A stretch of 64,000 nucleotides of DNA from a virus (IMGVR_UViG_3300023180_000042:1-64000); one strand, 5' to 3'. Shown: positions 5,516-36,200, numbered from the stretch's first letter. Notes: generated from the sequence alone by a model not told the origin. Numbers and translations are program-made.

Positions 5516-8500
5516 ATGGCTACAGAATTTACATCCAATACGCTATCTGGTATTTACTCAGATGATTTTAATGAGGATAACAATTTTCATCAAATCCTCT
5601 TTAACAATGGTCGCGCTCTTCAAGCGCGGGAGCTAACACAGCTTCAATCAATCATCTTTCAAGAATTAGCCAGATTTGGTAAGAACGTCTTTAAAGAAGG
5701 CGCTGTAGTCAATACAGGCGGTATGGCTGTTAATGCCAACATTGACTATATTAAAGTCTCGGCTGTAAATGCTGGCGGTGCATTCGCAGACATTCCTATT
5801 GGCACTGTTTTTAAGAACACAAGCACCGGCTTAGAAGCAAAAGTACTAGATGTAAAACCCAGAAATGTTGACGATGGATTTGTTCTTGATACGCTTTATG
5901 TACAGTATGTAAATTCTGGTGGCACTACAAATTCACAATTTGGTGATGGTGATGTGCTGTTCGATCAGTCTGGTGGTGGCTATCAGATCACTACCGAAAT
6001 TCCTAATGCTACGGGTAAAGGAGTCAGGTTCACTATAGGTGAGGGCGATTTCTTTGTTCTTGGTCACTTTGTTCACACTGTTGAACAATCGATCATTCTG
6101 TCTCCTTATACACAATCAGCAACAACGACGATTGGTTTTAAAGTTATTCAAGATGTTGTTACTGTCAATGATGATGTCAATTTATTCGACAATGCAAATG
6201 GTATTGTCAATACGGCATCTCCTGGTGCAGATCGTTTAAGAATTAGACTACAACTTACTGAACTGAGTAAGATAACCGAGAACGACACCTTCGTATTCGT
6301 CTGCAACATTGAGAATTCAAAAATCGTTGAGCAAGTCAAAGAGATTGACGCTTACAACACTGTCAACGATTTGATTGCACAAAGAACGTTTGAAGAGTCT
6401 GGTAACTATGTAGTTGAACCATTCGTTGCAAGTGTTGATGAAGGTACTTTCGTGTATCTTGATTCTAGTTTTGATTTAATTTTATCATCTGGAATGGCAT
6501 ATGTCAACGGTTATCGTGTTGAAAAAATTGCACCAACTCGCTTAAAAGTACCTAAGCCTAAGACAACTGAAACAGTAGAAAACGATGTTATTCCTGTTAC
6601 CTATGGTAACTATCTACTTGCAGACAGTCAGCGTGGTTTGATGGGTGGTCAATTTCACGATAATGTATATGAGTTTTATGATGACTTTGCTGGTCCTGCT
6701 TCAGGCACTTCACTAGGTTCTGCAAGAATTAGACAGGTGGAGAAAGCCGACGGTAACTATCGAGTTTATGTCTATGACGTACGGATCGATTCGGACAAGT
6801 CGTTAAGAGATGCCAAAGTACTTGCGAATACTACATCTGACAAATGGAGCTTAAAGCTTGAAGATAATGGTGCACACTTATATGCATCAACTCAAGATAA
6901 CAATCTTTTGTTCCCGCTGTCCCGTCCTCGTCCTGAGTCTTTTTCTGATATTGTATTGACGAAACAAAGACTGCAAGAATTTATTGTAGCCGATGGTAGT
7001 GGTGTTCTTACATTAAACACTCTGCCTGTAGGACAATCATATGTCGATACAACTCTATGGATCGTTGCTGACTCTGCGGCTATTTCACACACCGTATTAA
7101 CACCTACGAACAGTGGTCGAGATGTGCAAATTTCGGGCGCAATTCCAGGCGATACTTACTCTGTTCTGTGCTATGTTCAAAAGACAGGCACACGAAAAGC
7201 TAAGACTGACACTTTCGTCAATGGCGGAAAACTTACAGTAGCATACGATTCAGCGGCTAGACAATACTACTATCAATTTCCATACGTCGATGTGCATGAA
7301 GTAAGGAACGTTAATGTAACCAACATCGATGGACGCGATATGTCAGGCGATGTCCGTTTAGATTGTGGTATACGTGATAATTACTATGCAAAGAGTAGAC
7401 TGATTCTGAATGGTGATTACGATAGTGTTCCCACAACATTGCACGTCGATTACTCTTACTATGCACGTGGTGGCGGTGGTGATTTTTATGACGCTACTTC
7501 TTATCCAGATAACATAATATTTGCTAATAATATTGGTGGTGTCGTAGATCAAATTCAGCAAGACGGTACTGTAATTAATATTGCTAACTATCTCGACTTT
7601 AGACCCGACGAAACGTCTGGTGCTTTTAGTGCTTTTGAACTTCCTAGAAATGGGAGCAACATTACAGCGGATGTTAGTTATTGGTTACCAAGAGCAGATA
7701 AAGTTATTCTGACTCAAGAGGGTGAAGTTCAAGTTCTGATGGGTCAACCAGCAGGCAATCCACAGTACAAGCCAACTCCAGACAATACGCTTGAACTTGC
7801 CAAAATCTTAATAAACGGCAATATGCATGCCTTTGATGACTTGCGTATTACACCTGTCGAGCATCGACGCTATACGATGGCTGACATTGCAAAACTTGAG
7901 GCAAAGGTCGATGAGTTACAAGAATACACCGATCTGAGTCTTTTAGAACTTGAGCAAAAATTGTTTGCGGCACTTGACAGTGTTGGTAATGCAAGAGCCG
8001 AGTGTTGCAATCTCTGTGATGATCACTCGGATCAGACGGGTGCGGATACGAACAATCCCGATTACTCTGCATCTCTGGATCCAGAAAACAAATTGATTCG
8101 TCCTACATTTGATGAGAACAACATTCGACTTATTATCGACACTTCACTTTCTTCGGGAATTGTTAAGAAGGGCGATAATGTCTATCTGACACATGACTCA
8201 GAAGCTTGGGCAACTCAGGATCTTGCTTCTACTACTGTTAAAGTTAATCCATTTGGATTGGTTGATAACGTAGGCACACTGAAGCTATCTCCCACTTCTG
8301 ACGAGTGGAAAGATCCAGCACGTGCTGATCGTGCTGTGCCTGGTCAAGGTCGTCTTGATCGTAGACAAGCATATCTATGGAACAACTGGACTTGGAACTG
8401 GGCAGGTCGTTCTGCTGAAGACCTCGAATATTGGAATCCTTACTTTGATAACTCGATTATTGGGATTCGTCGAAGAAGGCTCGTTGAGCTAAGAGAGCGT

Positions 8501-10987
8501 TATTATTCTGGTCGAAATCAGGTCTCTCGATTCAGTGGTCGATTTGTGTCACGAGTTGTGCCTTCTGACACTCTACGTCAAGCAGTTGGCAATCGTGTTA
8601 TCGATGTTGCATTAATTCCCTGGATGCGCTCTAGAAAGATTTATTTCCACGCTAAGGGATTGAAGCCAAACACTAGACATTATCCTTTCTTTGATGGGAA
8701 AGAAGTTTCTGAATGGTGTCGTGAAGAGCCTGCATTCTTGATGTGGTCTGATCGTGATGATCAAACTGATCCACAAACTAGTTATTGGACAGACGAACAT
8801 CCTGATGGACAATCGCAGTTGATTTCTGACGCGAACGGTGAAATCATTGGTTCTTTCTGGATTCCAAACCCCGCAATAGAATGGAACGTCAGAGCGACAG
8901 ATCGAGAAACACAGTATAAATCACCAAATTTTTATTTTAGAGCAGGCATTCGCGAATTCAAATTACTAGACACCAGTGTTAATGATTGGGGTCGAGCAGA
9001 TAGTAAGTGCTTTGCATACTATGCGGCTGTTGGTGCAATCTGGCATCACTGGAATAATTTGATTACGACTAGACCTTGGGGTTACTGGTGGCCATTGTCG
9101 TACTGGGTTCACTGGGCTCAGATTTACAGTCCAAAAGAACTCAGAAATACACTCGATCAAATACGATCATCGGCTATAAATCTTGTTGATCCTAAATTGT
9201 CAGGTCTCTATGGTCCTGCGCAAGCTGGACTATCAGCGGCAGCTCTTACTGGCCTTGATGCAAATGGTCAAATGTCGCAGATTCTTTCTGACTACATTGA
9301 CGTTGATGCAAATCAGTTTGCAGAAGGATCACCAGCTACTACTATTACAGCGCCACAGAATCCTATGGCACAAACATTTTTCGTTGACAATCAGTTTGGC
9401 GTTACACTGACAAGTCTGCAACTGTACTTCAAAGCAAAAGATGACACGCTTCCTGTTCAGATTCATTTGCGTCCTGTTATTAACGGTAAGCCTGCACACA
9501 ACGAAATTGTTCCTGATTCTCAAGTTGTTTTGAAATCGAGTCAGGTTAGAGTTGTTGGTGAAGATCCTACGTTGGCTGTTATTCAAGAGCGTCCCACAAC
9601 GTTTACGTTCGATGAGCCAGTCTATCTGAAGCCTTGGACATCGTACGCAATTGTTGTGACTTCACAGTCGACCGACTATGAACTGTTTAGTTCTAGAACA
9701 TTGCTACCCGTATTCGGTTCAACTTCGCGAATCACATCGACGCAGAATGCTCCCGGAGCATTGTATCTGCCTCAGAACGGTCTTTCTTGGATCGAAGCAA
9801 AGGATCAGGATCTGATGTATGTTTTGAATCGTGCGAAGTTTGATCTTGGTGGTGGTAGTTTGATTCTGAAAAATGCACCGTTACCTCCAAAACTTCTTGG
9901 TCAAGCTGATCCGACAAAACAATCGCCGAAGCCAAATATTGAAACATTTGCAGGAACGAGAAAAATCTACGTGCATCACGCTAATCATGGTTTAGAACCA
10001 GGCGATCTTTGTAGACTCGACAGTGTTGCTAGTCTTGACTTTGGCGTAAGCGGCTATGCAGGTAGCATTGAAGGTTCTGGTGTATTCACTAATTCAAGTT
10101 CAATCGTATCGTACATCGAAGGAGCACACACAGTGGACTCTGTTGATGTGAATGGTTACTCATTCACTTATGATGTCTTACATCCAGTAGAAACATCATC
10201 AGGTCTCGGTAGTAGTCATAAAACATTATCCAGACGCAACGCTATCTTTAGCACCGCGATGCCTACAATCGAAACTGTAGTTCCGAACTTTACATCAATC
10301 GATGCTGGAGCTAAGTGGTCAGAAGGCAAGATGTTGTCGAGTACTAGAATCAATGCGGCTGGACGATGGAGCCAAGATGCGGATTACTCTAGAGTCACAT
10401 TGATGCAAAACATCGACTTCGACACTCCAAAGGCTATTTACAATCTAGCGGCTGAGGAAGCGAATTTCGGTGCTGGAGTCAGATCAGTATACTTCAAGCT
10501 TGATTTGAAAACATCGAATGATTATGTTTCACCTATCGTCGATATGCAGAGAGCATCTTTGACGCTTGCTGGATTCAAGCTTGACAATCCAACCGTAACA
10601 CCAGGAATTATCTCAGTCGATGAGACAAATCCGACTTCAGGAACAACGGGTTCGAAGCACATTACAACACCTGTATTCCTCGAACAAGATGCTGTAGGCA
10701 TTGATGTCAGAGCGTTAGTAAATATTCCTAATGATGCTGATATCTTGTGTTACTACAGAACTGCTGGTGCAGACGAAAATATACAAGATAAGTATTGGAT
10801 ATATCAGGAGAAAGTTGATAATATCCCATACGACAATTCTCAAGTATATCGAGATGCACAATGGTTGCCTGGTGGTCTAGGTGGTACTCTGAAGCCATTT
10901 AATCAAGCACAGTTTAAGTTTGTGTTTGTGGGTGGCGATAGAGCACCCTCTATTAAGAACCTGAGATACAGATATCTGGCAGTGTAA
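5516..10987 (+). CDS. Large VrlC-like (DUF4815-type) virion structural protein
   Basis: YSDDFNEDNNFHQILFNNGRALQARELTQLQSI, PGADRLRI, RTFEESGNY, RRYTMADIAKLE and PMAQTFFV motifs; position after gp8. Confidence 0.85.
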   Translation: MATEFTSNTLSGIYSDDFNEDNNFHQILFNNGRALQARELTQLQSIIFQELARFGKNVFKEGAVVNTGGMAVNANIDYIKVSAVNAGGAFADIPIGTVFKNTSTGLEAKVLDVKPRNVDDGFVLDTLYVQYVNSGGTTNSQFGDGDVLFDQSGGGYQITTEIPNATGKGVRFTIGEGDFFVLGHFVHTVEQSIILSPYTQSATTTIGFKVIQDVVTVNDDVNLFDNANGIVNTASPGADRLRIRLQLTELSKITENDTFVFVCNIENSKIVEQVKEIDAYNTVNDLIAQRTFEESGNYVVEPFVASVDEGTFVYLDSSFDLILSSGMAYVNGYRVEKIAPTRLKVPKPKTTETVENDVIPVTYGNYLLADSQRGLMGGQFHDNVYEFYDDFAGPASGTSLGSARIRQVEKADGNYRVYVYDVRIDSDKSLRDAKVLANTTSDKWSLKLEDNGAHLYASTQDNNLLFPLSRPRPESFSDIVLTKQRLQEFIVADGSGVLTLNTLPVGQSYVDTTLWIVADSAAISHTVLTPTNSGRDVQISGAIPGDTYSVLCYVQKTGTRKAKTDTFVNGGKLTVAYDSAARQYYYQFPYVDVHEVRNVNVTNIDGRDMSGDVRLDCGIRDNYYAKSRLILNGDYDSVPTTLHVDYSYYARGGGGDFYDATSYPDNIIFANNIGGVVDQIQQDGTVINIANYLDFRPDETSGAFSAFELPRNGSNITADVSYWLPRADKVILTQEGEVQVLMGQPAGNPQYKPTPDNTLELAKILINGNMHAFDDLRITPVEHRRYTMADIAKLEAKVDELQEYTDLSLLELEQKLFAALDSVGNARAECCNLCDDHSDQTGADTNNPDYSASLDPENKLIRPTFDENNIRLIIDTSLSSGIVKKGDNVYLTHDSEAWATQDLASTTVKVNPFGLVDNVGTLKLSPTSDEWKDPARADRAVPGQGRLDRRQAYLWNNWTWNWAGRSAEDLEYWNPYFDNSIIGIRRRRLVELRERYYSGRNQVSRFSGRFVSRVVPSDTLRQAVGNRVIDVALIPWMRSRKIYFHAKGLKPNTRHYPFFDGKEVSEWCREEPAFLMWSDRDDQTDPQTSYWTDEHPDGQSQLISDANGEIIGSFWIPNPAIEWNVRATDRETQYKSPNFYFRAGIREFKLLDTSVNDWGRADSKCFAYYAAVGAIWHHWNNLITTRPWGYWWPLSYWVHWAQIYSPKELRNTLDQIRSSAINLVDPKLSGLYGPAQAGLSAAALTGLDANGQMSQILSDYIDVDANQFAEGSPATTITAPQNPMAQTFFVDNQFGVTLTSLQLYFKAKDDTLPVQIHLRPVINGKPAHNEIVPDSQVVLKSSQVRVVGEDPTLAVIQERPTTFTFDEPVYLKPWTSYAIVVTSQSTDYELFSSRTLLPVFGSTSRITSTQNAPGALYLPQNGLSWIEAKDQDLMYVLNRAKFDLGGGSLILKNAPLPPKLLGQADPTKQSPKPNIETFAGTRKIYVHHANHGLEPGDLCRLDSVASLDFGVSGYAGSIEGSGVFTNSSSIVSYIEGAHTVDSVDVNGYSFTYDVLHPVETSSGLGSSHKTLSRRNAIFSTAMPTIETVVPNFTSIDAGAKWSEGKMLSSTRINAAGRWSQDADYSRVTLMQNIDFDTPKAIYNLAAEEANFGAGVRSVYFKLDLKTSNDYVSPIVDMQRASLTLAGFKLDNPTVTPGIISVDETNPTSGTTGSKHITTPVFLEQDAVGIDVRALVNIPNDADILCYYRTAGADENIQDKYWIYQEKVDNIPYDNSQVYRDAQWLPGGLGGTLKPFNQAQFKFVFVGGDRAPSIKNLRYRYLAV

Positions 10988-11220
10988 TGAGCAGATATGT
11001 ACCTGTGAAGGGGCACTCTGGCTTAGTTCGTGACACATATTCCAACGCATTGATTAACACCAATGCTCAGGAGATCGAACAAGCCAGAGAGCGTAAACGC
11101 CTCCGTCAACTTGAAAAAGCCCAAAAACAATCACTTGAACAAAAGGTAGAGACTATCGAAAAGGATCTGGATGAAATAAAAAGTATGTTGAAAGACTTGA
11201 TCCACAATTCTTATAAATAA
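10987..11220 (+). CDS. Small coiled-coil protein usually found after the VrlC-like gene
   Basis: VKGHSGLVRD..SNALIN followed by a coiled coil (EIKSMLKDL); TAATG coupling. Confidence 0.7.
   Translation: MSRYVPVKGHSGLVRDTYSNALINTNAQEIEQARERKRLRQLEKAQKQSLEQKVETIEKDLDEIKSMLKDLIHNSYK
11212..11219 (+). promoter_or_regulatory. T4-type late promoter TATAAATA
   Basis: Exact motif just upstream of the 2080-aa fibre gene. Confidence 0.8.
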
Positions 11221-11252: not shown

Positions 11253-14200
11253 ATGTCTTATCGTCCTCTCAAACACTTAAATGAAGGTGCGTTCAAAGAG
11301 CTACTGACTTCTGAAGAAGACTATCTGGCTTATCGAGCGGGTGTTCATTTAAGTAAAATGACAACAAGTGATTTGTCTGCGCTTTCTACTAACGCGGCAG
11401 GCGAACTTGTTGGTACGTTTGAAGACACTTTTTATACCTCTGGTCTAGGTCCCATTCCTGGCTCGACAATTACTCGCACAATTGCGATTACTCATGCATC
11501 TGATCCTGCTGGATCAACGCACACTTCTACGTTTGGTGCTTTCACGCCTTTACCCACTGTTGTTTATGTGGGAGACACAATTGAACTAACAATTCAAGGC
11601 ACAGCGACAAACACAGGCATTGGATTTGAAGAGATTGAATATCAGTTAGGTATTTCTGGTAGCGCGGCTATAGGAACTATTACTACGACTCCTTCGCCAG
11701 CGGCAACGAGTACGAGTGCAAACGGTCGAGAAGTATCGTGGGAAAATTATCCTGACGGCAATCTTAGCGGTTCTTATCAAGTCACGTGGTCTATTCCGAT
11801 TACCGATGATGGCGTAATCAACTTCACACTCAACGGTACTACTACTGATTTTCAAAACAGTGTTGTAAGTTCTACCGATGCTGAAGTGCTACCTTCTGTT
11901 CGTGTAGAGCCACAGTTGAAGCCAACTACTTCGGCTACACTGTATGAATTATATCAGAACGATGCGAATGTAGCAACCATCGACAACGACAATGCTCTAA
12001 AAAGAAATCCACTCTATTGGGATCGAACTGCAACGCCTGCTGGCTTGAAAGAAATGAGCGATGCAGAACTCGATATTGTAGTTCAAAGACTTCTTTTAAA
12101 AATCTTTGCAAACGATCTTCCCGGTCAGTATCGCCTTGCTACAGTATCTCCGGGCGCACAGTGGTCAGAGTTTATCGCAGATGTATTTGAAGACACTCGT
12201 GGTGACGGTTCACTTGTTACTTATTCTATCTGGGTCAAAACAACCGCAACAGTTCCGACAGTAGTTAAACCTATTTCGCCTTTACGTCAACCGTTGACTA
12301 ACAAGTTTCAAGGTATAAAGGATCTTAATGATTTAGAACTTGAAATGACTTTCGGCGAACGAATGAAGCAGGTTATTCAAGACACTGGCATTGGTAAGTA
12401 TCAACTTCGATCTTCTGCTGACGGACCACCTACAGATCCAGGTACGTGGGAAGCACGTGGTAGTGCAATCGATACAAACCTAACTTACGAATCTGAAACG
12501 GCTTATATTTCAACCGATTCGTATGATATTAACTACGCTTCGCAGTATCAAGGTTCATATGTTCCTGATTACATAGGCGAGTACATTGACACATACGAAT
12601 CCAACTATCTTGGTGAATACGGCGCTACTTATACATCATCTTATACTGGCAATTACGAGGCTACGTACATCGGTACGTTTAGTGGTGATTACGCGCAGAG
12701 TTATATAGGCGATTATCTTCTTGAGTACGCTCAATCTTATGAGAGTGGTTATGAAGGTGAATATGTTCCCAATTATTCGGGTCTTACTGTTGAAGAGCAG
12801 TACACGACCATTTACGAAGCTGAGGACGCGATTGAATTTTATGCGTCAGCATACGCAGAACTTTATGGTGATCTTCCTGTAATTTATACGGGCAACTATG
12901 TTACTCAGTACGTCGAGGAAGTTTATACAGGTAACTTTACGGAACTGTATGTCGGCGATTACGTCATAGACTATAGTGGTAACTTTACAGAAAATTACAT
13001 CGATGATGTCTATACAGGTAACTATATTGACGTATACACTGGCGACTACACAGAAAATTATGAAGGCAACTTTACCGTTAACTATATTCAAACTGAATAT
13101 GCCGGTAACTTTACACAGCCGTACACTGGTGATTTTACAGCCGCATACTCTACGTCTTATGCAGTTACTTACGCACAAGAAAACTATACTGGTAACTATC
13201 AATCAGATTATGCTTCTGAATATCAAGTGCCTTACACAGGCGACTTCTTAGCCACTTATATTCAGTTGATTTACGGTGGTAATTTCATCGAACAATACAG
13301 CGGTGACTTTACTGCAACTTATGCGGGCAACTTTACCGAAACTTATACTCAAGCCCAATATACTGGTAACTACTTGTCACAGTACGCTGGCAACTATCAG
13401 TCTGATTATTCTGGCGATTATATTGGAACTTATGAGCAACAGACTTACACGGGTAACTATATTTCTGATTACACGGGTAACTATCAGTCTCAGTATTCTG
13501 GTGACTTTACTGCCACTTATGCTCAAGCACAATACACAGGTGACTTCATTGTAAGTTACTCTGGTGACTTTATTGCTACATTCCAAGGACAGTATGAAGG
13601 CAATTATCAGTCTCAATACACTGGTAACTTCTTACAGGACTATACTGGTAACTTTATTCAAGGTTTTGAAGGACAATATCAAGGTAACTATCAAGTCAAC
13701 TATGACGGTAATTACATTTCGGACTATGTTACTGCTAGTTACACAGGCGACTTCTTGGCTGTTTATTCGGGCAACTTTGTAGAAACGTTCGAAGGTCAGT
13801 ACACTGGTAACTATCTTTCGACGTATGCTGGCAACTATACTTCAGATTACGTCGGCGATTTTGTTCAGACATTCCAAGGGCAATATGTCACTGTTTACGA
13901 AGAGCCGTATACCGGTAACTTTGTAAACACATTTATTTCTGCTGACTATACAGGCGATTACATCTCGCAATACGAGAGTAATTTCTTGCAAGCGTATTCT
14001 GGTAATTACGTCTCACTTTATGTGCAAGCCAACTATACTGGCAACTTCGCGGCTCAATATACTGGCGACTTTACCGCAAACTATCAAGGCGATTTTCTAA
14101 CTACATTCGTTGATGCGAACTACACTGGTAACTATGCTTCGGATTATGTTCGTGCGTCTTATACCGGTAACTTCCTAGCCACATATTCTGGCGATTTTCT

Positions 14201-17200
14201 TGCCTCTTATACCGGTGACTTTGTTACAACGTTCGTTGATGCGAACTATACTGGTAACTATGTTAGTCAATATTTGGGGACTCGGAATGTAACTTATTCG
14301 GGTAACTACATTTCGAATTACGCACAGGCGAACTATACGGGTAACTTCCTTGCAACATTCGTTGATGCAAACTACACAGGCAACTTCCTAGTAACTTATG
14401 CTGGCGACTTTACTGCTACATTCCAAGGGCAGTATCAAGGTGACTATGAGTCGGGCTATGCTGGCTCATTCGTCGCTCGATATACTGGTGACTTCTTAGG
14501 AACATTCCAGGGTCAATATGTTGGTGATTTCTTAGCCAACTATGATGGCAACTTTATTGCAAATTACGCTGGCGACTTCCTTGCTACGTTCCAAGGGCAG
14601 TATGTTGGTGACTATGTTGGTCAGTATACAAGACAAATCAACGTAGGCTATACAGGAAGCTTTCTGGCGACATTCCAGGGACAGTACACAGGTTCGTTTT
14701 CTCAAACTTATGTAGGGACTTACACAGGCACATATGTCGGTAACTACACTGGTACATATGTCGGAAACTATGCTGGTGCTTATGTATCGGCGGCAGCCAC
14801 TTATCAAGGTGGCTACGCCGGTGCTGCCGCTTGGACATCGTACTTCTTCAGTCTTAGTTCTCCTCGTTATTACTGGTATACGACACAAGCAAGATTTGCT
14901 TTTCCCGTAAACCGTTGGTTTTATTGGAATAATTCATTTCAATCATTGGCGAGCATTGCCAATGACGGATTAGTTCCCTTTTTTAGTCGCGGTTTTGAAT
15001 ATGAAGCGGGTACCATACAATATCAGACAGGATCGTCTTTAAGCACTCTCCGCAACTATTACAATATCAGACGCCGGTCAATTTTTGGTGGCTCAACATA
15101 CACTGGCGGATATACCGGCGGTGGCGGCACTTATACAGGAACATATGTTGGTTCGATTCAGCAAACCTATACTGGCTCGATTCAACAGTCGTACGATGGT
15201 AATTATATTGGCTCTGTTAACATAACATTCGTTGACGCAAACTATACTGGTGACTATCTTGGTCAGTATATACGAGCAATTAATCAAAGTTACACAAGTG
15301 TGTTCCAACAAACATTCGTTGATGCAAACTACACTGGTAACTTTATTGTTAATTATTCAGGCGATTATGTTTCTCGTTATACGGGCAACTTCCTTGCAAC
15401 GTTCGTTGATGCAAACTACTCTGGTAACTTCTTAGCGACATATACCGGCAACTATACTGGTGTATATGTTGGTAGCTTCCTTGCAACGTTTGTTGATGCA
15501 AACTATGTGGGTAACTATGTTTCGAACTATACCGGTGACTTCTTAGGAACGTTCCAGGGTCAGTACGTTGGTGATTTCTTAGCAACATTCCAAGGTCAGT
15601 ATCAAGGCGATTTTATTGCGAACTACGTTGCAACGTTCGAACAAAATTACACTGGTGACTTCCTTGCTACGTTCCAAGGCCAGTATCTGGGTAACTTTGT
15701 AACGCCTTATACTGGCAACTATATTTCAAATTATGCTGGCGACTTTACGGCGGCGTATACTGGAAACTATGTTGGCGATTTCTTAGCCACGTTCCAGGGA
15801 CAATATCTGGGTAACTTTACTGTACAATATACCGGTAATTATCTGAGTCAATATACTTCTGATTTCTTAGCCACGTTCCAGGGACAGTATGTCGGTGATT
15901 ACATTTCGAACTATAATGCAGACTTCAATACTCAGTATCAGTCAAACTTTACGGCAACGTTCCAGGGTCAGTACATTGGTGATTTCTTAGCAACATACAC
16001 TGGCACTTATGACACAATATATGTTCAAGCCGACTACACTGGTAACTTCGTCACAACATACAGTGGTGATTATATCTCTGATTACACCGGTGACTTTACT
16101 GCCAACTTCGTTTCACAGCAATACACTGGTGATTATATCTCTGATTACACTGGTAACTTTGCAGTAACGTATACTGGTAATTATCTCGGCGATTACGTTT
16201 CGCGATACACTGGCGACTACGTTGGAAATTACGCCGATCAAGTGTACGGTGGTGACTTTACTCAAGTCTATACTGGCGACTTTACGAATAACTACGTTGG
16301 CGATTATATTTCTACATACGCTCAAGCAGATTATTCTGGTAACTACGTATCAAATTATCAGGGTAACTTCACGGCGCAGTTCGAAGGTCAATACGTAGGC
16401 AACTTCTTAGAAGATTATACGGGCGACTTTACAGCTATTTACTCTGGTGACTTCCTTCAAGGATTTGCTGGTCAATACGAAGGTAATTATATTACTCCGT
16501 ATACCGGTGATTATATTTCAGCCTATACTGGTGATTTTCTTGCAACGTTTGAAGGTCAATATGTTGGCGATTTCATCGTACAATACACTGGTAACTTCAT
16601 CGAAACTTATGAAGCAGACTTCGTACAAGATTTTGAAGGTCAGTATACTGGTAACTATCAGTCTGACTATACTGGCGATTATGTCGCAATTTATACTGGT
16701 GACTTCTTACAGATTTTCCAAGGGCAATATGTCGGCGATTACGTAAAAGCATATATCGGCAATTATCAGTCAGCCTATACGGGCGATTTCGTATCGATAT
16801 TTGAAGGTCAGTACACCGGTGATTATCTGTCTGATTACACTGGTAACTATCAAGCAAATTATTCAGGCGACTATCTGTCTAACTTCGAAGGTCAGTACAC
16901 TGGTGACTTTATCGTAACATACACAGGCAATTACGAAGTAGACTACACGGGCGACTTTGTTGAATCATACACCCAAGATTATGAGCAAGACTACATAGAA
17001 GATTATGTTGCTCAAGAAGCATACGTAACGGCTTATGCTGGAAACTACACTCCAACATACGAAACAGTTTATACTGGTGATTATACTCCTGATTACGAAG
17101 GTCCATCGGGCGACTATTTAGGAACCTATCTTTCGAATTACACTGAAGAGTTGTATGCGCAAGAGTTTACGGTTGACTACATATCATTAGACTATACGAG

Positions 17201-17495
17201 AAATCGCGAAGAAAGTTACACTGGTGATTCTTATATAGAAACGTACACAACTGATTTCGAATCAAGTACTGATTACGCCACTTATTTGGGCGGTGATGAT
17301 AATGAAGAATATGTAGGAACATTTGAGGGCGCGGGAGATGCAGAAGTTTATGGTGGTTCTCCTTATGAAGGATCTAGTTACGTATCTGATTACAATCGAG
17401 TAGTTACCATCGCAGAAGCATATTTGGATGACGCTAAATTAACATCAACACCAGTAACAATTGAGACATTTACATTATACGTACGTGTTGCTTAA
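11253..17495 (+). CDS. Giant Tyr/Gly-rich repeat fibre protein with mirror-symmetric arms and a central tip domain
   Basis: 2080 aa: about 415-aa globular N-terminus, aromatic-every-4th-residue repeats (YxG[DN] / [FY]xxx) at about aa 416-1193 and 1282-2050, and a unique aromatic/basic domain at about aa 1194-1281; preceded by a late promoter. Confidence 0.8.
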   Translation: MSYRPLKHLNEGAFKELLTSEEDYLAYRAGVHLSKMTTSDLSALSTNAAGELVGTFEDTFYTSGLGPIPGSTITRTIAITHASDPAGSTHTSTFGAFTPLPTVVYVGDTIELTIQGTATNTGIGFEEIEYQLGISGSAAIGTITTTPSPAATSTSANGREVSWENYPDGNLSGSYQVTWSIPITDDGVINFTLNGTTTDFQNSVVSSTDAEVLPSVRVEPQLKPTTSATLYELYQNDANVATIDNDNALKRNPLYWDRTATPAGLKEMSDAELDIVVQRLLLKIFANDLPGQYRLATVSPGAQWSEFIADVFEDTRGDGSLVTYSIWVKTTATVPTVVKPISPLRQPLTNKFQGIKDLNDLELEMTFGERMKQVIQDTGIGKYQLRSSADGPPTDPGTWEARGSAIDTNLTYESETAYISTDSYDINYASQYQGSYVPDYIGEYIDTYESNYLGEYGATYTSSYTGNYEATYIGTFSGDYAQSYIGDYLLEYAQSYESGYEGEYVPNYSGLTVEEQYTTIYEAEDAIEFYASAYAELYGDLPVIYTGNYVTQYVEEVYTGNFTELYVGDYVIDYSGNFTENYIDDVYTGNYIDVYTGDYTENYEGNFTVNYIQTEYAGNFTQPYTGDFTAAYSTSYAVTYAQENYTGNYQSDYASEYQVPYTGDFLATYIQLIYGGNFIEQYSGDFTATYAGNFTETYTQAQYTGNYLSQYAGNYQSDYSGDYIGTYEQQTYTGNYISDYTGNYQSQYSGDFTATYAQAQYTGDFIVSYSGDFIATFQGQYEGNYQSQYTGNFLQDYTGNFIQGFEGQYQGNYQVNYDGNYISDYVTASYTGDFLAVYSGNFVETFEGQYTGNYLSTYAGNYTSDYVGDFVQTFQGQYVTVYEEPYTGNFVNTFISADYTGDYISQYESNFLQAYSGNYVSLYVQANYTGNFAAQYTGDFTANYQGDFLTTFVDANYTGNYASDYVRASYTGNFLATYSGDFLASYTGDFVTTFVDANYTGNYVSQYLGTRNVTYSGNYISNYAQANYTGNFLATFVDANYTGNFLVTYAGDFTATFQGQYQGDYESGYAGSFVARYTGDFLGTFQGQYVGDFLANYDGNFIANYAGDFLATFQGQYVGDYVGQYTRQINVGYTGSFLATFQGQYTGSFSQTYVGTYTGTYVGNYTGTYVGNYAGAYVSAAATYQGGYAGAAAWTSYFFSLSSPRYYWYTTQARFAFPVNRWFYWNNSFQSLASIANDGLVPFFSRGFEYEAGTIQYQTGSSLSTLRNYYNIRRRSIFGGSTYTGGYTGGGGTYTGTYVGSIQQTYTGSIQQSYDGNYIGSVNITFVDANYTGDYLGQYIRAINQSYTSVFQQTFVDANYTGNFIVNYSGDYVSRYTGNFLATFVDANYSGNFLATYTGNYTGVYVGSFLATFVDANYVGNYVSNYTGDFLGTFQGQYVGDFLATFQGQYQGDFIANYVATFEQNYTGDFLATFQGQYLGNFVTPYTGNYISNYAGDFTAAYTGNYVGDFLATFQGQYLGNFTVQYTGNYLSQYTSDFLATFQGQYVGDYISNYNADFNTQYQSNFTATFQGQYIGDFLATYTGTYDTIYVQADYTGNFVTTYSGDYISDYTGDFTANFVSQQYTGDYISDYTGNFAVTYTGNYLGDYVSRYTGDYVGNYADQVYGGDFTQVYTGDFTNNYVGDYISTYAQADYSGNYVSNYQGNFTAQFEGQYVGNFLEDYTGDFTAIYSGDFLQGFAGQYEGNYITPYTGDYISAYTGDFLATFEGQYVGDFIVQYTGNFIETYEADFVQDFEGQYTGNYQSDYTGDYVAIYTGDFLQIFQGQYVGDYVKAYIGNYQSAYTGDFVSIFEGQYTGDYLSDYTGNYQANYSGDYLSNFEGQYTGDFIVTYTGNYEVDYTGDFVESYTQDYEQDYIEDYVAQEAYVTAYAGNYTPTYETVYTGDYTPDYEGPSGDYLGTYLSNYTEELYAQEFTVDYISLDYTRNREESYTGDSYIETYTTDFESSTDYATYLGGDDNEEYVGTFEGAGDAEVYGGSPYEGSSYVSDYNRVVTIAEAYLDDAKLTSTPVTIETFTLYVRVA
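12500..17400 (+). repeat. Imperfect 12/24-nt coding tandem repeats (e.g. TACACTGGTAACTTC, ACGTTCCAGGGACAGTAT, TTCGTTGATGCAAACTAC)
   Basis: Degenerate tetrapeptide units throughout, interrupted only by the unique segment at about 14830-15095. Confidence 0.9.
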
Positions 17496-17510: not shown

Positions 17511-17990
17511 ATGGCAAAGTATGAGTACTTAGATAATGCATTTTGGGAAGCAGAAGATCGCTCAATCGTAAAATGCATTAGGCTAACTACGCTTGAAGGT
17601 CAAGAAGGCAAGAAGAAAAAAGACGTTATGGAGTTTCGCAAGATTCGTCCTGATGGCTCTGAATGCCCTCACTATAAAGAAGTGGTAACAAAAGTAGGCA
17701 TTCCAAAGATTGATGAGAATACTGCTGAACGTAAAGAAAGAAAAGAGCGTGAAGTAAGAGAAAAACGCGCTCATCACGAGCAAAAGAAAAAGACTGCTGA
17801 ACTAGAGCAACTTTTCAATCTTAAGCTTCAAGCCTTTGAAATTGAAGAGATTAAAAATTCTGAAGATCGTGTATTACGTGGCAAGATTCGTAGAGCGCAA
17901 AATGTAGTAGAAATGAATGCGTTGTGTGCAGTTTTGATCGCAAAAGAATTGGGCTATTATGGAGACAAAGATGACGCAGGAGCCAACTAA
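17511..17990 (+). CDS. Charged coiled-coil protein, putative fibre assembly chaperone
   Basis: 159 aa, GGAG RBS, K/E/R-rich helices, directly after the fibre gene; function inferred from position only. Confidence 0.5.
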   Translation: MAKYEYLDNAFWEAEDRSIVKCIRLTTLEGQEGKKKKDVMEFRKIRPDGSECPHYKEVVTKVGIPKIDENTAERKERKEREVREKRAHHEQKKKTAELEQLFNLKLQAFEIEEIKNSEDRVLRGKIRRAQNVVEMNALCAVLIAKELGYYGDKDDAGAN

Positions 17991-18708
17991 GGGTTACGTA
18001 ATCGTTGCGTCACGGCGAAGTTTCTTTTATGTGTCTGCACTTAATTTGATGGAATCAATTCGCGATTTTTATCCTGATGCAAATATCTGTCTAGTCTGTG
18101 AAGAAAAGTTTCTTGATGATCGAGGACGAAAACTCGCCAACGAAATAATTTTCTGTAACGATCACAAGCGAGCCAAACTTTGGGGCATGGCAAAGTCTCC
18201 ATGGGATATTACATTCTATATTGACGCAGACACAGAAGTCGAGCATGAAGACATTGAACATGTCTTTGGCGAACTGAATGGCTATGATGTCATGTACACT
18301 GGTCTTCCCGAAGAACGTTCTTACTGTTATGCAGAACTGAAGTTTCCTGGTGGTCAATTCGAACTGTGTGGGGCAGTGTGTCTGTATGACATGCGCAATC
18401 CATTAGTGCGCGAGTTTATGTGGGACTGGTATGATCTGACTGTTCAACAATACGCAGGCACTTGGTGGCCACAGAAAGAAGATGGAACAGAAGATACTGA
18501 ATTATATCCTGCAACGTTGAAGCGTTGGGATCAATTCTCTCTTTGGTGGCTTGTAAACAAAGAGCCCAAGTATCAAGACTTGAAAGTGGGTATCTTTGAA
18601 GATGACGCCAGATGGAACTATTTTTCACGCTATAAATATGCTCACAACAAGAAGCCTGTTGTTATTAGACATTATTCTGCTTCTGAAGCGAAGCATATGG
18701 AGTTTTGA
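17971..18708 (+). CDS. GT-A fold glycosyltransferase (nucleotide-diphospho-sugar transferase-like)
   Basis: GYVIVAS, SIRDFYPDANICL, a DxD motif (TFYIDADT) and a WDQFSLW motif. The ATG at 17971 has GGAG upstream. Confidence 0.75.
   Translation: MTQEPTKGYVIVASRRSFFYVSALNLMESIRDFYPDANICLVCEEKFLDDRGRKLANEIIFCNDHKRAKLWGMAKSPWDITFYIDADTEVEHEDIEHVFGELNGYDVMYTGLPEERSYCYAELKFPGGQFELCGAVCLYDMRNPLVREFMWDWYDLTVQQYAGTWWPQKEDGTEDTELYPATLKRWDQFSLWWLVNKEPKYQDLKVGIFEDDARWNYFSRYKYAHNKKPVVIRHYSASEAKHMEF
18631..18638 (+). promoter_or_regulatory. Probable internal late promoter TATAAATA for the oxygenase gene
   Basis: Exact motif inside the GT gene, about 70 nt upstream of the next start. Confidence 0.5.
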
Positions 18709-19385
18709 TGAGAGATATTCCACTTAACGATTTTGCATTAGACATCTTAGATGATGCGCTTTGGTTCACTCAAGACAAGAACTATGAGACTGTTGTGCTA
18801 ACAAAGAAAGATAAGCACACCAAAGAAGATGCTGACTGGTATACCGGCGAAGCATACTTCAAACAAATTATGGCGCAAGGTACAGGTCATAATGGATTTC
18901 CAGAAATTGTGGTATCTCATGGTTTTGGCATTGGTCAAATGCATTTCTCTAAAGAGAGAACTTCGCAGGCAAGAATTCCTGAAGTCTCTATGAAACAGGA
19001 TGCGTTTTTGCAAAAAATACAAACTACGTTCAATTTGAAACGTAATGCTCTATTTGCGGTTTATCCGCCAGGTGGTTACATTTCTTGGCACAACAATGCG
19101 AATGCTTCTGCATTCAACTGCGTCTTTACTTGGAGCGAAACCGGCGATGGTTGGTGGAAGCACTGGGATAATGAAAAGAAAGAAATGGTAACGATACCTG
19201 ATAAGAAAGGCTGGCAATGTAAAGTTGGTTACTTTGGTGCGTACGAAGATCCTGCCGAAAAGCTAGTGTATCACACAGCACGAAATGGCGACACAGGTTT
19301 ACGCATGACAGTTGCATTTGTGCTTGACAGATCAGAGATGGCTATAGGAATGCAAGATTGGATTATTGAAGATATTCACGCCTAA
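18708..19385 (+). CDS. 2OG-Fe(II) oxygenase / cupin-like protein
   Basis: YPPGGYISWHNN (H-x-N variant of HxD), distal YHTA and RMTVAF (typical 2OG-binding Arg strand); TGATG coupling to the GT gene. Confidence 0.65.
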   Translation: MRDIPLNDFALDILDDALWFTQDKNYETVVLTKKDKHTKEDADWYTGEAYFKQIMAQGTGHNGFPEIVVSHGFGIGQMHFSKERTSQARIPEVSMKQDAFLQKIQTTFNLKRNALFAVYPPGGYISWHNNANASAFNCVFTWSETGDGWWKHWDNEKKEMVTIPDKKGWQCKVGYFGAYEDPAEKLVYHTARNGDTGLRMTVAFVLDRSEMAIGMQDWIIEDIHA

Positions 19386-19432: not shown

Positions 19433-19786
19433 ATGGCAAGGTATGAAGAATTAACTATCGATCAGGGAACAGATGTTTCTCTTGACGTGTATCTTACGAA
19501 CATCGATGGTTCACCAAAAGATTTGTCTGGCTATTCAGCCGCGGCTAAAATGAGTACGCGGTATGACGTTGATAGCTCAGATAAAATCTCTTTCGACGCT
19601 TATGTCACTGTCCCTCCAACTGCCGGCATTGTTAACTTATCTTTGACAAACACCGTCACAGATACGCTAAATAGTAAAAGAAAATATGTTTACGATATGG
19701 AAATTTCATATCAAGACAGCGATGCCAACACTATCGTAGAAAGAGTTCTTGAAGGACTTATAACAGTAACGCCTTCGGTAACATGA
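19433..19786 (+). CDS. Small virion structural protein (BppU-like adaptor)
   Basis: LTIDQGTD..DLSGYSAAAKM..G.VNLSLT..T..L...KYVYDMEI..RVLEGLITVTPSVT pattern, common before fibre genes in marine T4-like phages. Confidence 0.7.
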   Translation: MARYEELTIDQGTDVSLDVYLTNIDGSPKDLSGYSAAAKMSTRYDVDSSDKISFDAYVTVPPTAGIVNLSLTNTVTDTLNSKRKYVYDMEISYQDSDANTIVERVLEGLITVTPSVT

Positions 19787-31831: not shown

Positions 31832-33253
31832 ATGGCAGACATTAGAATTTCAGAATTGCAAGAATTGATCAACGTTCAAGACAGTGACGTTCTTGTGATC
31901 AATGATATTACTGCGGCTACTACCAAAAAGATTACTCGTGATCGCTTTCTTGTAGGCATCACACGGAACGTTTTTGACTCCGCAAATAACGCAGTTGTAA
32001 AGCAAGACTTAAAGGTCAACAACGATCTGATCGTTGGTGGTGATATCGAAGCGACAGGTGATATTTCGTTTGGTTCATTGACCGACGTTACTGCTGGTAT
32101 TACAGCACTTCGATTTATTGGCACTGGTATTGAAAATAATGACAGTAATGGTGCTATTCCAACTGCGGCGGCTGTTGCTGATTATCTCGATTACTTCTTG
32201 CAGGATCTTTATGACTCTGCTACACTACCAGTCACGCTCAATGCGTTGACAGATGTTAGTATTGTCACGCCACTCGCAAATGAAGTTCTAAAGTACGATG
32301 GCTCAAACTGGATCAATGCGATTGACTCTGCGGGTATTACAAATCTTGGTGCACTTGATGATGTAATCATTTCAAGTCTTACTGACGGTCAGGCACTGAA
32401 GTATAATGGATCTTACTGGGTAAACGCAACTGACTCAGCCGGTCCAACTAATCTTTATCAGCTAGACGATATTTTTATCGACTCAGCACTGTCGGCTAAT
32501 CCTCTTACGACTGGACAAGTTCTCAAGTGGAACGGAACTAAGTGGGCTAACGCTAACGACTCTAGCGGTGGTGGCGGTGGTGCTGGCGGTGGACTCGACA
32601 GTGCGCTGACATTGCAACTGATTAGTTCGTCTGTCAATCTGAATACGCTTTCTGGTGTAGCAATCTCTGCACCCTCGACAAATCAGGTTCTCAAGTACAA
32701 TGGGTCTCAGTGGGTAAATGCCGCTGACTCTGTTGGTGCTGGCGGAAGTAATGCTCTCAACGATTTGACCGATGTTGTCATCTCAACACCTAGCACGAAT
32801 CAAGTTCTGAAGTATAATGGTTCTAACTGGGTAAATGCGGCTGACTCCGTTGGCGGAGCTGGCGCTGGTTTATCGTCTCGCGGCACATTCAATACTGTCA
32901 CCGCTTCGTTGAGCAATAATGACTCAGTAGACGTGAACATTACTGGAGCATATAAAGGTTATTCGATGCTCAAGATTCAAACAGACGTTGCGGCATGGGT
33001 AAGAGTCTACACTGATTCGGCTTCGCGTACTGCTGATCTCGGTCGGCTTTCGTCAGAAGATCCAGCACCAGGCTCTGGTGTTGTAACTGAGGTAATCACA
33101 TCGGGTGCAGAGACAATCAACTTGGCTCCTGGACCTATCGGCTTTAACAATTCGTCGCCCGTAACTGACACTATTCCTATCAAGATCGTAAATCTAAGTG
33201 GAGGTGCATCCGCGGTCGACGTTACACTTACGGCGTTGAAGCTTGAAGCATGA
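31832..33253 (+). CDS. Fibre protein with five L-x-D-V..LK(Y/W)(N/D)G..W-x-N-A-x-D-S repeats
   Basis: RISEL N-terminus; five repeats at about 32235-32860; C-terminal WVRVYTD..R..D..DPAPGSGVVTEVIT domain. Confidence 0.7.
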   Translation: MADIRISELQELINVQDSDVLVINDITAATTKKITRDRFLVGITRNVFDSANNAVVKQDLKVNNDLIVGGDIEATGDISFGSLTDVTAGITALRFIGTGIENNDSNGAIPTAAAVADYLDYFLQDLYDSATLPVTLNALTDVSIVTPLANEVLKYDGSNWINAIDSAGITNLGALDDVIISSLTDGQALKYNGSYWVNATDSAGPTNLYQLDDIFIDSALSANPLTTGQVLKWNGTKWANANDSSGGGGGAGGGLDSALTLQLISSSVNLNTLSGVAISAPSTNQVLKYNGSQWVNAADSVGAGGSNALNDLTDVVISTPSTNQVLKYNGSNWVNAADSVGGAGAGLSSRGTFNTVTASLSNNDSVDVNITGAYKGYSMLKIQTDVAAWVRVYTDSASRTADLGRLSSEDPAPGSGVVTEVITSGAETINLAPGPIGFNNSSPVTDTIPIKIVNLSGGASAVDVTLTALKLEA

Positions 33254-36200
33254 CATTAAAAGTCTATCACGTCATATTGCATCGTACAGAGGATCTGGAT
33301 GCATTTTATGCTGATATGGAGACGCCGGGAGGCTATCTCCATATACCAGATCGTGCTGTTGATTATGCCGCAAGGCTTCCTTTCAGTAAAGTCACTGCAT
33401 ATCGTCTAACAGACGAAGAAGCGGAACAAGTAAAACAAGATCCTCGTGTTCGTGCAGTTGAACCTGCACTTGAAGACCACGGCATTTTTGCGAAGCCCAC
33501 TTGGACCGATACTGGTCAATGGCGCAAAGATGACGGCGCAAACGCAACAAACAGTCAACAAAACTGGGCTTTGTATCAGTGTACCCGAGATACAATCTCT
33601 ACCACATATGGCACAGACGGCACAGCACTTGTCATATCACAAACTTCAGCCAATGCTGAAGGAAAAGACGTTGATGTCATTGTTGTCGATGGCATTCCCA
33701 ATTTAGATCACCCAGAATTTGCTGTCAATGCTGACGGCACGGGTGGATCACGCATCATTCAATACAACTGGTTTCAACATACTGATTCTGTTACGGGCGG
33801 TGCATATGCAAATGGAACGTGGGATTATACTACAGAATCGCTAGGTGATTCAGAAAACAATAACCATGGCACACACGTCATGGGCACAGTTGCGGGTAAT
33901 AGACAGGGTTGGGCACGAAAAGCAAATCTGTACTCGATCAGTCCGTATGGTTCTAACTACAATTGGACATCTACTGGCATTAGTTCTAGTTATGTATTTG
34001 ACTACGTACGAGCGTTTCATCGAAATAAAAGCATCAATCCTAGAACTGGTCGAAAGAATCCAACGATTATTAACAACAGTTGGGGTTACTCGTACCCTGA
34101 TACAGGCAATATCATCGACTCAGCTGGATCAGTAGAGCGAATTGTCTTTCGAGGAACAACGTACAACGGTCCCTTTACGACCGAGCAAATGCTAAACTAT
34201 GGTGTTCCACCTTATTGGGCTTACACAAAAGCCGCGGTCGACGCTGGTATTCCTATTGAAGTTGCTGATGGTGTCTATACCACTCCGCCAGCAAAAGTCA
34301 CAAGCATTGGATGGAAGCTTACAACTCCCGCAACAAAAACACAAGAGTGCATCGACGATGGAATCATTGTGGTTTCTGCGGCGGGTAACAGTTCTCAGTA
34401 CATTGATTCGTCGAATGGCGATGATTATAATAATAAGTTGTTTTTAAAATATAATGCGTTTCCTGCTACCATCTCTGCATTTCAAGGAGCGAGCGATTCA
34501 GCGATATACTATCATCGAGGGTCAGCACCCGGAAATACTTCGTTGTGTATTGGTAATGCATCCATCTATCAAAACAATCAGAGAGAATTTTCAAGCAACT
34601 TCGGTCCTAGAATCGATCTCTTTGCGCCTGGTGATGAGATCATTAGCGCAATTCGTCACAATGATTTTTATGACAACATCGTAACTGATCCAAGAAATGC
34701 ATCATACTATTACGGAATCATTGGTGGCACAAGTATGTCTGCACCTCAGGTGACAGGTGTTCTTGCATCTATTCTTCAGATTAATCCAGACTTTAGACAA
34801 GCAGACGCAAAGAGATACATTCAAGGCACAGCATTCACAGGTGCGATGTTCGATTCTTCAACTGATTGGGGAAATGTCACAACGTATGGCTGGAATACTC
34901 TTTATGCTTTGAGTACAGATTTAAAAGATACAGTTGACTTGTATCTTCGTTATAGAGAAGAACGTGCAAGTGTTGGTGTCACACTTCCAAAAATAAATAA
35001 TAGAGAAAGACCAACAACGGGTGTTCTTTGGCCTAGACCTAAAGTTATTAAGACACGCAGAAGCACTGGTGATATTCTTTATCCTTCGCCTGATGCTGAT
35101 CTTGCACTAGCACCGCTTGACGCTCAAACTTCATATGCGGGTACTTTCACGGCTAACTTTGTGGGCGATTCTGCTATTACATATACGGGTGACTTCACAA
35201 CTGATTACACAAGTATTGACATATACGTCAATGACAGCACAGGACTAGATTATAGCCCAGCCTATGCGAGTGGTTATATTGGCGACTTTACTGCTGTTTA
35301 TACGGGAAATTATCTTGGAGCGTATGAAGGAAATTATAATCTAACTTATGCAAGTACAGCGTATCTAAGTCGTTATAGTGCGACAGACTACATTGGGTCG
35401 GATGGTTCATATGAAACCAGTTATAATAGCTTTTACGAAGGTCCATCGGGCACCTATTTAGCAACTTACGTGGGCACGATGGCGTACTTTGGTGATTATG
35501 TGGTATCACCCGACGAACTAGATTACACTACTGACTACGGCGTTGGCATAAAGTATACGGGAGATTATCAAGGTCCTGCACATCCGGGCTTTGAAACAAA
35601 TTATATTGGTTCTTATCAGTCTGAAGTTCAAGAAGGTGGTGGCACGTTCTTGGATTCAGTAACATACTCCGGTAACTTTATTAGTGATTACTCAAATCCA
35701 ACAGACTATGTATCTGATTATACAGGTAACTATGTAGCAAACTACCTTGCTACTATTATAGTTTACTCGTCTGAGTATATTTCCAATTACGCCGGTAATT
35801 ATACTCTTGAAGGCTATACTGGAGACTTTCTTGCCAACTTTACTGGAACTGAAGCATATACTTCAGACAGTGCGGGTGACGGCGCTATCATAATTTCAGA
35901 TTATCTGGGAACATATACTGGAAACTATGTTGACTCTGGTGATGCATCATACATTGGATCTTACTTGGGCGACTTCAGTGCGAATTACACAGGTAACTTC
36001 TCATCTAATCTAGAATACACTGGTGGAGATGGCGGCACATATTTGGGCGCATATCTAGGAAACTTTAGTGCGATTTACACAGGCAATTATGTCGGTGGGG
36101 CTTACCAGGCAACTTATGTCGGTGCATCGAACACTTCGTTGAATGTAACGAACAATGGTGCTTCTAACTACATTATTGATAGTGCATCGAACCCAACGTT

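Follow-up and report, generated by a model that had tools for sequence, protein, structure and literature searches.

A fibre protein of a T4-like marine phage with two mirror-complementary arms and a chain that probably runs out and back

Background

The protein described here, P0001, is a putative fibre of 2080 residues encoded by a single gene in a stretch of 64,000 nt of viral DNA (IMGVR_UViG_3300023180_000042:1-64000, the whole of which is referred to below as the window), which belongs to a 74,322-bp contig of an uncultured T4-like marine myophage. The closest described system is the needle of T4 gp37 (PDB 2XGF), in which D10 is made up of residues 811–881 and 1010–1026 and D11 of residues 882–1009, and in which the strand residue G921 must face the core residue F970 of the neighbouring chain (PMC6957217). 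As in that needle, the P0001 chain is predicted to leave a base or collar, run outward, form a tip at the turn and run back, with Gly or another small residue set against an aromatic one, and both proteins occur in T4-like myophages. The out-and-back part would comprise ~1670 residues in P0001 versus ~128 in gp37; seven His-coordinated iron ions are present in gp37, whereas the arms and the tip of P0001 are without His, and gp37 has neither the four-residue lattice nor the Asn/Asp rule and the bulge/F.GQ rule of P0001. No sequence or profile homology of P0001 to gp37 or to the gp10/11/12 collar was detected in Pfam, PHROGs and PDB searches.

Long thin beta structures that possess cross-strand side-chain ladders and no globular core are also found in the central sheet of Borrelia OspA and in staphylococcal SasG E-G5. 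Unlike a single fold-back ladder, these rods consist either of short meander strands that cross the axis or of domains in tandem; they are unrelated to P0001 and do not come from phages. No described fibre family is built as a register-coded fold-back at the scale of P0001, and literature searches returned no description of the PGTW/ETYTLYVR family to which it belongs; P0001 is treated here as a new form of the fold-back fibre, one that belongs to a large family without a name. New in the present analysis are the Asn/Asp rule, its single register and the compensatory swaps. Judged from sequence, a P0001 chain that folds back on itself, with antiparallel arms and a unique domain at the turn, is strongly supported.

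Organization of the fibre gene

The gene encoded a conserved base, two arms separated by a tip domain, and a short C-terminal end, as follows:

11253..17495, + strand: whole fibre gene, open reading frame (ORF) of 2080 aa (P0001)
11253..12485, + strand: conserved base domain, aa 1-411, ending in the PGTW anchor (W399, nt 12438-12449)
12486..14831, + strand: N arm, aa 412-1193, putative outgoing strand of four-residue units, with 16 five-residue bulges and 8 F.GQ units
14832..15098, + strand: tip domain at the predicted turn, aa 1194-1282 (89 aa), Trp/Phe/Tyr- and Arg-rich, hypervariable
15099..17402, + strand: C arm, aa 1283-2050, putative returning strand, with 8 bulges and 13 F.GQ units in mirror-complementary order
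17403..17495, + strand: C-terminal segment, comprising the ETFTLYVRVA motif of the family (aa 2071-2080, nt 17463-17492) and the stop codon

The arms were parsed by cutting P0001 at each aromatic residue, which yielded 185 units for aa 412-1195 and 178 units for aa 1283-2050, nearly all of them four residues long, an aromatic residue thus recurring at every 4th position across both stretches. Position 1 of the unit was aromatic, position 2 beta-branched or hydrophobic, position 3 small and position 4 polar. Two ordinary kinds of unit were distinguished, G-type (Y-x-G-N/D) and A-type (F/Y-hydrophobic-A/S-T/N), and the two special kinds were variants of these, the bulge being an A-type unit with one inserted residue (FV-D-AN) and F.GQ being a G-type unit. 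A composition count showed that His, Cys and Trp were absent from both arms; the tip was basic and rich in Trp, Phe and Tyr.

Mirror order of the special units

For the mirror alignment, which was gap-free, the N arm was reversed and set against the C arm, with FQGQ(1141) and FVDAN(1326) as the anchors. All 21 special units of the C arm landed on special units of the N arm, and each of the 21 pairs set a bulge against an F.GQ unit, which reproduced the protein-level mirror pattern claimed in an earlier note made from the DNA sequence alone. Read outward from the tip, the N arm had the order Q4 B7 Q2 B Q2 B8 (Q, F.GQ unit; B, bulge), and the C arm had B4, then Q facing each B and B facing each Q. 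The 23 intervals between special units that had been counted by hand in that note (6,6,6,4,2,6,6,2,6,6,4,6,4,4,6,4, followed by seven intervals of 6) proved exact and corresponded to indices 0, 7, 14, 21, 26, 29, 36, 43, 46 and so on to 143. The facing units were as follows:

Indices 0, 7, 14 and 21: N-arm F.GQ versus C-arm bulge
Indices 26, 29, 36, 46, 53 and 60: N-arm bulge versus C-arm F.GQ
Indices 43 and 77: N-arm YVRAS and YVTAS versus plain C-arm YTGN
Indices 65, 72, 82 and 89: N-arm F.GQ versus C-arm bulge
Indices 94 to 136, in steps of 7: N-arm bulge versus C-arm F.GQ
Index 143: N-arm YVEEV, the outermost bulge, versus C-arm YTQD
Index -9: irregular, a 7-mer in both arms
Indices 3-4: irregular, YTRQ/INVG versus YIRA/INQS
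Index 146: irregular, a 7-mer versus a 6-mer
Index 153: irregular, a 9-mer versus a 7-mer

Several finer points of the earlier note were likewise recovered in this alignment, namely that the YVRAS and YVTAS bulges face a YTGN unit, that YTQD faces the outermost bulge, and that irregular spots are mirrored, YTRQINVG and YIRAINQS coinciding at indices 3-4. When the order of the C-arm intervals was shuffled 200,000 times, 21 coincidences were never reached (the maximum, 20, came up in 5 shuffles), and opposite types in every one of the 21 pairs would arise by chance with a probability of 1 in 203,490. In the direct (non-mirror) orientation, at most 10 complementary pairs were obtained. A G-type unit faced an A-type unit at 104 of the 122 indices and, as the bulge is of A-type and F.GQ of G-type, this facing rule extends to the special units, which are phase slips in the G/A alternation.

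The same forward super-repeat of 28 residues was present in both arms, and direct DNA repeats with 60-88% identity were found in the gene. A search of the gene for inverted DNA repeats found none, which bears out the statement of the earlier note that the mirror does not exist at the DNA level; with no inverted repeats and with direct repeats merely 60-88% identical, an assembly artefact is not the source of the pattern. The shared super-repeat and the diverged direct repeats could be taken to mean that the mirror order is a by-product of repeat evolution, in two independent arrays that make no contact. However, no single event at the DNA level can copy two matching segments separated by 1-3 kb in mirror order, opposite types were found at 21/21 sites in P0001 and at 40/40 sites in the longer homologue L006, and the Asn/Asp complementarity described below was seen at one register alone and was kept between homologues by both-sided swaps, so that such an origin is exceedingly improbable. 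One direct DNA repeat (14601-14654 and 15243-15296, 74% identity) encoded YVGDYVGQYTRQINVGYT and YTGDYLGQYIRAINQSYT; since the two copies are symmetric about unit index 3.5, the motif would pair with itself head-to-tail below the tip, with a local two-fold.

Asn/Asp complementarity and pairing register

Mutual information was computed between unit positions across the arms and gave one outstanding signal (z 27), that between position 4 of N-arm unit k and position 4 of C-arm unit k-1. Among the G-type units, 47 of 47 position-4 pairs were Asn-Asp or Asp-Asn, with 0 Asn-Asn and 0 Asp-Asp pairs; over all units, Asn/Asp pairs were complementary in 55 cases versus 1 (55/56 pairs), across 23 distinct interval patterns. 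At the other shifts from -42 to +42 units, whole super-repeats included, the Asn/Asp ratio was ~1:1, and a slip by one super-repeat in P0001 would give ~24 like Asn/Asp pairs. A weaker covariation (z 3.3-4.1) was observed between position 2 and position 2 across the arms.

Because the Asn/Asp pairing occurred at one shift, this pattern fixes the predicted antiparallel register at i+j = a_k+c_k+2, in which an aromatic residue is opposite the small position 3, position 2 is opposite position 2, and position 4 is opposite position 4. In this register, the V-D of a bulge facing the first Gln of F-Q-G-Q would have the classic geometry of a beta bulge. The paired units summed to 2459-2467, and the PGTW and C-terminal motif anchors to 2470. 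In a repeat that is otherwise slippery, the bulge and F.GQ marks together with the Asn/Asp pattern act as a barcode that makes one register unique. Anti-diagonal covariation, which the earlier note had expected of paired arms, was thus found, both in the 55:1 ratio at a single register and in compensatory swaps between homologues; the strongest covariation was not local, as it linked residues up to ~2500 positions apart in L006. A beta-solenoid would have a constant coil and coil-to-coil contacts only, whereas the special units were spaced irregularly, by 3, 5 or 7 units; with this spacing and a register that is unique, a solenoid is disfavoured.

The antiparallel pairing might be made between subunits, the N arm of one chain pairing with the C arm of its neighbour, so that hairpins are swapped within a dimer or trimer and the fibre still has an out-and-back shape. 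Covariation reports a contact and not the partner chain, and the key Gly-Phe contact in the T4 gp37 needle is one between subunits (PMC6957217), whereas the short linkers of the tip favour the nearest partner, and the monomer model of a small family member, P0078 (see below), docked its own C-terminal strand on its own base beside the outgoing strand. A swapped hairpin is therefore regarded as decidedly unlikely.

Matched lengthening and compensatory changes in related proteins

The most informative relatives, L004, L005 and L006, were taken from IMG/VR. L004 and L005 encoded an identical orthologue of 2078 aa with the 21/21 special-unit code, and L006 encoded a homologue of 3237 aa with a base domain 60% identical to that of P0001. 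The inner pattern of L006 matched that of P0001 as far as index 94, beyond which both arms were longer; its regularity extended to unit 295, and its arms, of 1214 and 1184 residues, were both ~150 units longer than in P0001. Its 40 C-arm special units all coincided with N-arm special units of the opposite type, an irregular B..B facing Q..Q was observed at indices 185/188, and 115 Asn/Asp pairs were complementary and 4 were not (115/119). Since L006 kept both rules over 295 units, its arms have been lengthened in step by matched insertions; this is what the earlier note had predicted for a change in length, and the 40/40 bulge-to-F.GQ pairs were kept while both arms were extended.

Compensatory changes were evident when the orthologous Asn/Asp pairs of P0001 and L006 were compared: 27 of 34 pairs were unchanged and 6 were swapped on both sides, with 0 one-sided changes to Asn-Asn or Asp-Asp and 1 pair that had become Thr-Asn. 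Between P0001 and L004 there were 1 both-sided swap and 1 break. The swapped residues are hundreds to thousands of positions apart and constitute anti-diagonal covariation.

Varied degrees of identity were shared by P0001 and L004 along the chain, with 87% in the base, 85-92% in the arms, 78% in the last 130 residues and 51% in the tip region (aa 1177-1297), where the identity to L003 was 61%. The tip had no match in distant homologues, and a search with the tip as query found no homologue among proteins of 169-2000 aa. Conserved chain ends and a hypervariable middle fit a fold-back fibre that recognizes its host through an element at the turn. In clean form, the bulge/F.GQ and Asn/Asp code was confined to the subfamily of the window (P0001, L003-L005 and L006).

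Structure prediction

AlphaFold2 (AF2) was run on the smallest family member, P0078 (404 aa), with a family alignment of 40 sequences. In the resulting model, the base had a predicted local distance difference test score (pLDDT) >90, a strand E242-268 started at the W of PGTW, and a strand E374-402 crossed the C-terminal motif. These long strands were continuous, with 27 and 29 residues, and in the model they most likely pair with each other, as no other element is long enough; by extension, the C-terminal ETFTLYVRVA motif of P0001 would pair back onto the base. A Foldseek search with the P0078 model against PDB and BFVD gave no match at E<=0.001. In structural alignment of the base domain (VIA-align), the best rows were MACPF/MABP beta-prism domains, with a weak Z of 6-6.9, which is below the level meaning more than a common arrangement, and the match to T4 gp11 was weaker still (Z 2.8, 49 residues).

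The long strands of P0078, the irregular spacing of 3, 5 or 7 units, and the 12-residue and Gly-free repeats elsewhere in the family make a solenoid or a meander less likely than a ladder that runs continuously along the axis. With a rise of 0.30-0.345 nm per residue, an arm of 795 residues was calculated to span 238-274 nm, and that of L006 >400 nm.

Alternatively, the ribbon might be wound or stacked, as a superhelix, a cross-beta sandwich or a two-start solenoid, in which case the fibre would be several-fold shorter, ~50-100 nm. AF2 without an alignment, applied to the turn region of P0001 (aa 1036-1437), drew strands of 5-6 residues split at G[DN] with a period of 28/29 residues; Gly-Asn and Gly-Asp are good turn formers, a 28-residue super-repeat does exist, and a length >400 nm for L006 seems extreme. 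However, the confidence of that model is low (mean pLDDT 46), the irregular spacing of the special units misfits a constant coil, and other members of the family possess 12-residue repeats and Gly-free units. In addition, AF2 with an alignment drew continuous strands of 27-29 residues at the base, and a strict i+j register over 1200 residues is the expectation for a continuous ladder. A wound or stacked ribbon is on balance rather unlikely.

Proposed assembly of the fibre

The out-and-back arrangement inferred in the earlier note is supported by the mirror code, the single register, the compensatory swaps and the variable tip in mid-chain. P0001 is quite probably a late-expressed T4-like fibre with an out-and-back chain, paired arms, a tip in mid-chain and a C-terminus docked on the base. 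For the more specific proposal that the arms form one two-stranded antiparallel beta ladder hundreds of nm long (~250 nm; >400 nm in L006), with its register written in the sequence, the chances appear about evenly balanced.

In the proposed mechanism, a beta strand of ~795 residues would run outward from the base (aa 1-411), a small, basic, aromatic-rich and fast-evolving tip would form at the turn and presumably bind the receptor, ~789 residues would run back antiparallel beside the outgoing strand, and the last ten residues would dock onto the base. Aromatic rings would alternate from each strand on one face, each lying over a small residue of the partner strand, and at every 3, 5 or 7 units a one-residue insertion (F-V-D-A-N) on one strand would be accommodated by F-x-G-Q on the other. 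For the four-residue lattice alone, slippage in multiples of four residues would carry little penalty, and the aperiodic bulge and F.GQ marks together with the Asn/Asp pattern would penalise the wrong registers, so that the code may represent negative design against mis-registration during folding. The geometry would be that of a beta-ribbon with its aromatic face buried in an oligomer, probably a trimer, and the fibre would be ~240-270 nm long, attached to the baseplate and able to bind a receptor through its tip.

Several points weigh against this proposal. A thin fibre of 240-270 nm (>400 nm in L006) has, to our knowledge, no documented counterpart on T4-like phages, and the composition count gave ~80 net negative charges per arm. 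Since the arms are without His, iron sites of the gp37 type are absent. Covariation is blind to direct versus diagonal cross-strand pairs, so that the register could be off by 2, and it is equally blind to pairing within a chain versus between chains. As for the models, the alignment-free prediction of the turn region had a mean pLDDT of 46 and short strands, and residues 269 to 376 of P0078, the distal part, had a pLDDT <50. Lastly, balance of indels was not universal among distant members with irregular middles: P0036 versus P0044 (42% identity) gave +14 for the N half and +147 for the C half, a figure to which a midpoint insertion of 61 aa contributes, and their alignment was judged unreliable in the irregular middle; the indels between P0031 and P0035 were balanced (109 and 113).

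An extended ladder would make the hairpin of P0001 far longer than any other intramolecular beta hairpin known. It would be comparable, at the protein level, to complementary base pairing, and its length would be tuned only by matched insertions in both strands, perhaps so that sparse hosts in sea water are captured within a larger radius. Rarely is the pairing register of a repeat protein legible from one sequence and open to a check by covariation, as it is here, and the code provides natural rules for the design of register-locked beta nanofibres, namely aromatic over small, Asn over Asp, and bulge over F.GQ. The position of the putative receptor-binding element in mid-gene, not at the C-terminal end, bears on host prediction and on the evolution of fibre length.

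Wider family

Among 1.84 billion cluster representatives, 521 relatives of P0001 were found, 166 of them at E<=1e-30. The members with complete ends shared one layout, consisting of a PGTW base, arms of four-residue units, a variable middle and a C-terminal ETYTLYVR, and the base domain was 43-61% identical in 19/19 first homologues. In P0001, aa 396-407 contained PGTW followed by G.A.[DN]T, as in the family, and the C-terminal E-T-[YF]-T-L-Y-V-R-x-x motif was represented by ETFTLYVRVA; the same ending was found in ~90/165 collected proteins. Most members possessed other unit types (Arg/Thr-rich units, 12-residue repeats, Gly-free units) and large irregular or multi-domain middles. As the unit types differ, an Asn/Asp i+j scan of the other members was uninformative.

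Symmetry about the middle was nevertheless recognizable in other forms. In 9 members with differing repeats, tandem-repeat blocks were equidistant from the PGTW and C-terminal anchors (combined Fisher p 0.001, failures counted), those of P0036, for example, lying 166-246 from PGTW and 163-246 from the C-terminal motif. In 79 members, the regular stretch of one arm correlated in length with that of the other (r 0.62, p 1e-9), whereas a cruder segmentation of the arms gave a weaker correlation (r 0.25).

Searches of Pfam and PHROGs with P0001 and of Pfam with 40 family members gave nothing, as did PDB sequence and profile searches with the fibre protein, and the matches in the ESM Atlas were to unnamed viral clusters only. 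In megablast, the fibre gene had no match among 50,697 phage records; in tblastn searches of the same records with the base domain, only phage C48C1 (Kyanoviridae, OQ984149) was matched. Its homologue, the product of coding sequence CDS0201 (L002 6012-16055), is a 3347-aa 'hypothetical protein' in the same gene neighbourhood as the fibre gene. The family is thus a large unannotated family of marine phage fibres, with >500 clusters, no Pfam model and one sequenced phage. CDS0201 was composed of Arg/Thr/Ser-rich units with at least 4 globular insertions, and a stretch of ~60 residues was duplicated in it (aa ~2011-2076 and 2083-2156). With this layout, the protein may be a fibre of branched or multi-domain design.

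Genomic neighbourhood

The fibre gene was located within a structural module, in which the following features surround it:

5516-10987, + strand: 1823-aa protein with DUF4815 (phrog_358), between the baseplate wedge genes and the fibre gene
10987..11220, + strand: 77-aa ORF, phrog_473 'virion structural protein' (E 2.4e-20)
11212..11219, + strand: T4-type late promoter motif TATAAATA, 34 nt upstream of the fibre ATG
17511..19385, + strand: three coupled ORFs (159, 249 and 226 aa), overlapping or abutting, directly behind the fibre gene
19433..19786, + strand: 117-aa ORF, phrog_3304 'L-shaped tail fiber protein assembly' (E 1.6e-12)
33250-36531, + strand: 1093-aa protein of the virion module with Pfam Peptidase_S8 at aa 138-535 (E 5e-27)

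The motif TATAAATA occurred in 14 copies in the window versus 2.4 expected, 13 of them on the + strand, and several copies were situated close upstream of ORF starts. This distribution fits a structural module that is driven throughout by late promoters of the T4 type. ORFs upstream of the fibre gene matched the baseplate wedge families phrog_219 and phrog_438, and the nearest sequenced relatives of the baseplate gene were those of C48C1 (Kyanoviridae, 40%), Methylophilales phage Melnitz, Pelagibacter phage HTVC008M and cyanophages. The 1823-aa DUF4815 protein is probably a large baseplate or fibre-socket protein that anchors the base of the fibre. The 77-aa ORF, between the gene of this protein and the fibre gene, encoded a charged, probably helical C-terminal half; by size and position, it presumably resembles small fibre-assembly helpers such as T4 gp57A. 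For the three coupled ORFs behind the fibre gene, no Pfam match at E<=0.01 and no PHROGs match were obtained; the same three-ORF set was located behind the C48C1 homologue. Further downstream, the 117-aa ORF encoded a protein resembling a tail-fibre assembly chaperone, and a 1069-aa tail-fibre ORF was also present.

It was considered whether the fold-back fibre could be something other than a receptor-binding tail fibre, such as a fibre of the whisker or collar type, or else a structure that scaffolds other virion proteins. No known type of receptor-binding domain was found in the Pfam/PHROGs and tip searches, and the S8 protease ORF at 33250-36531 contains similar four-residue units and could co-assemble with the fibre. 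The gene, on the other hand, directly follows the baseplate wedge genes and precedes the fibre and chaperone genes, and the tip diverges several-fold faster than the rest of the protein, which is the usual signature of host recognition; a role other than receptor binding is hence quite improbable.

In the 1093-aa S8 protein, the Peptidase_S8 domain was followed by ~250 residues of irregular Tyr/Phe four-residue units. No peptides of at least 8 aa were common to this protein and the fibre; its motif YEGPSGTYLATY was close to YEGPSGDYLGTY of the fibre. The S8 protein could co-assemble with the fibre or process it.

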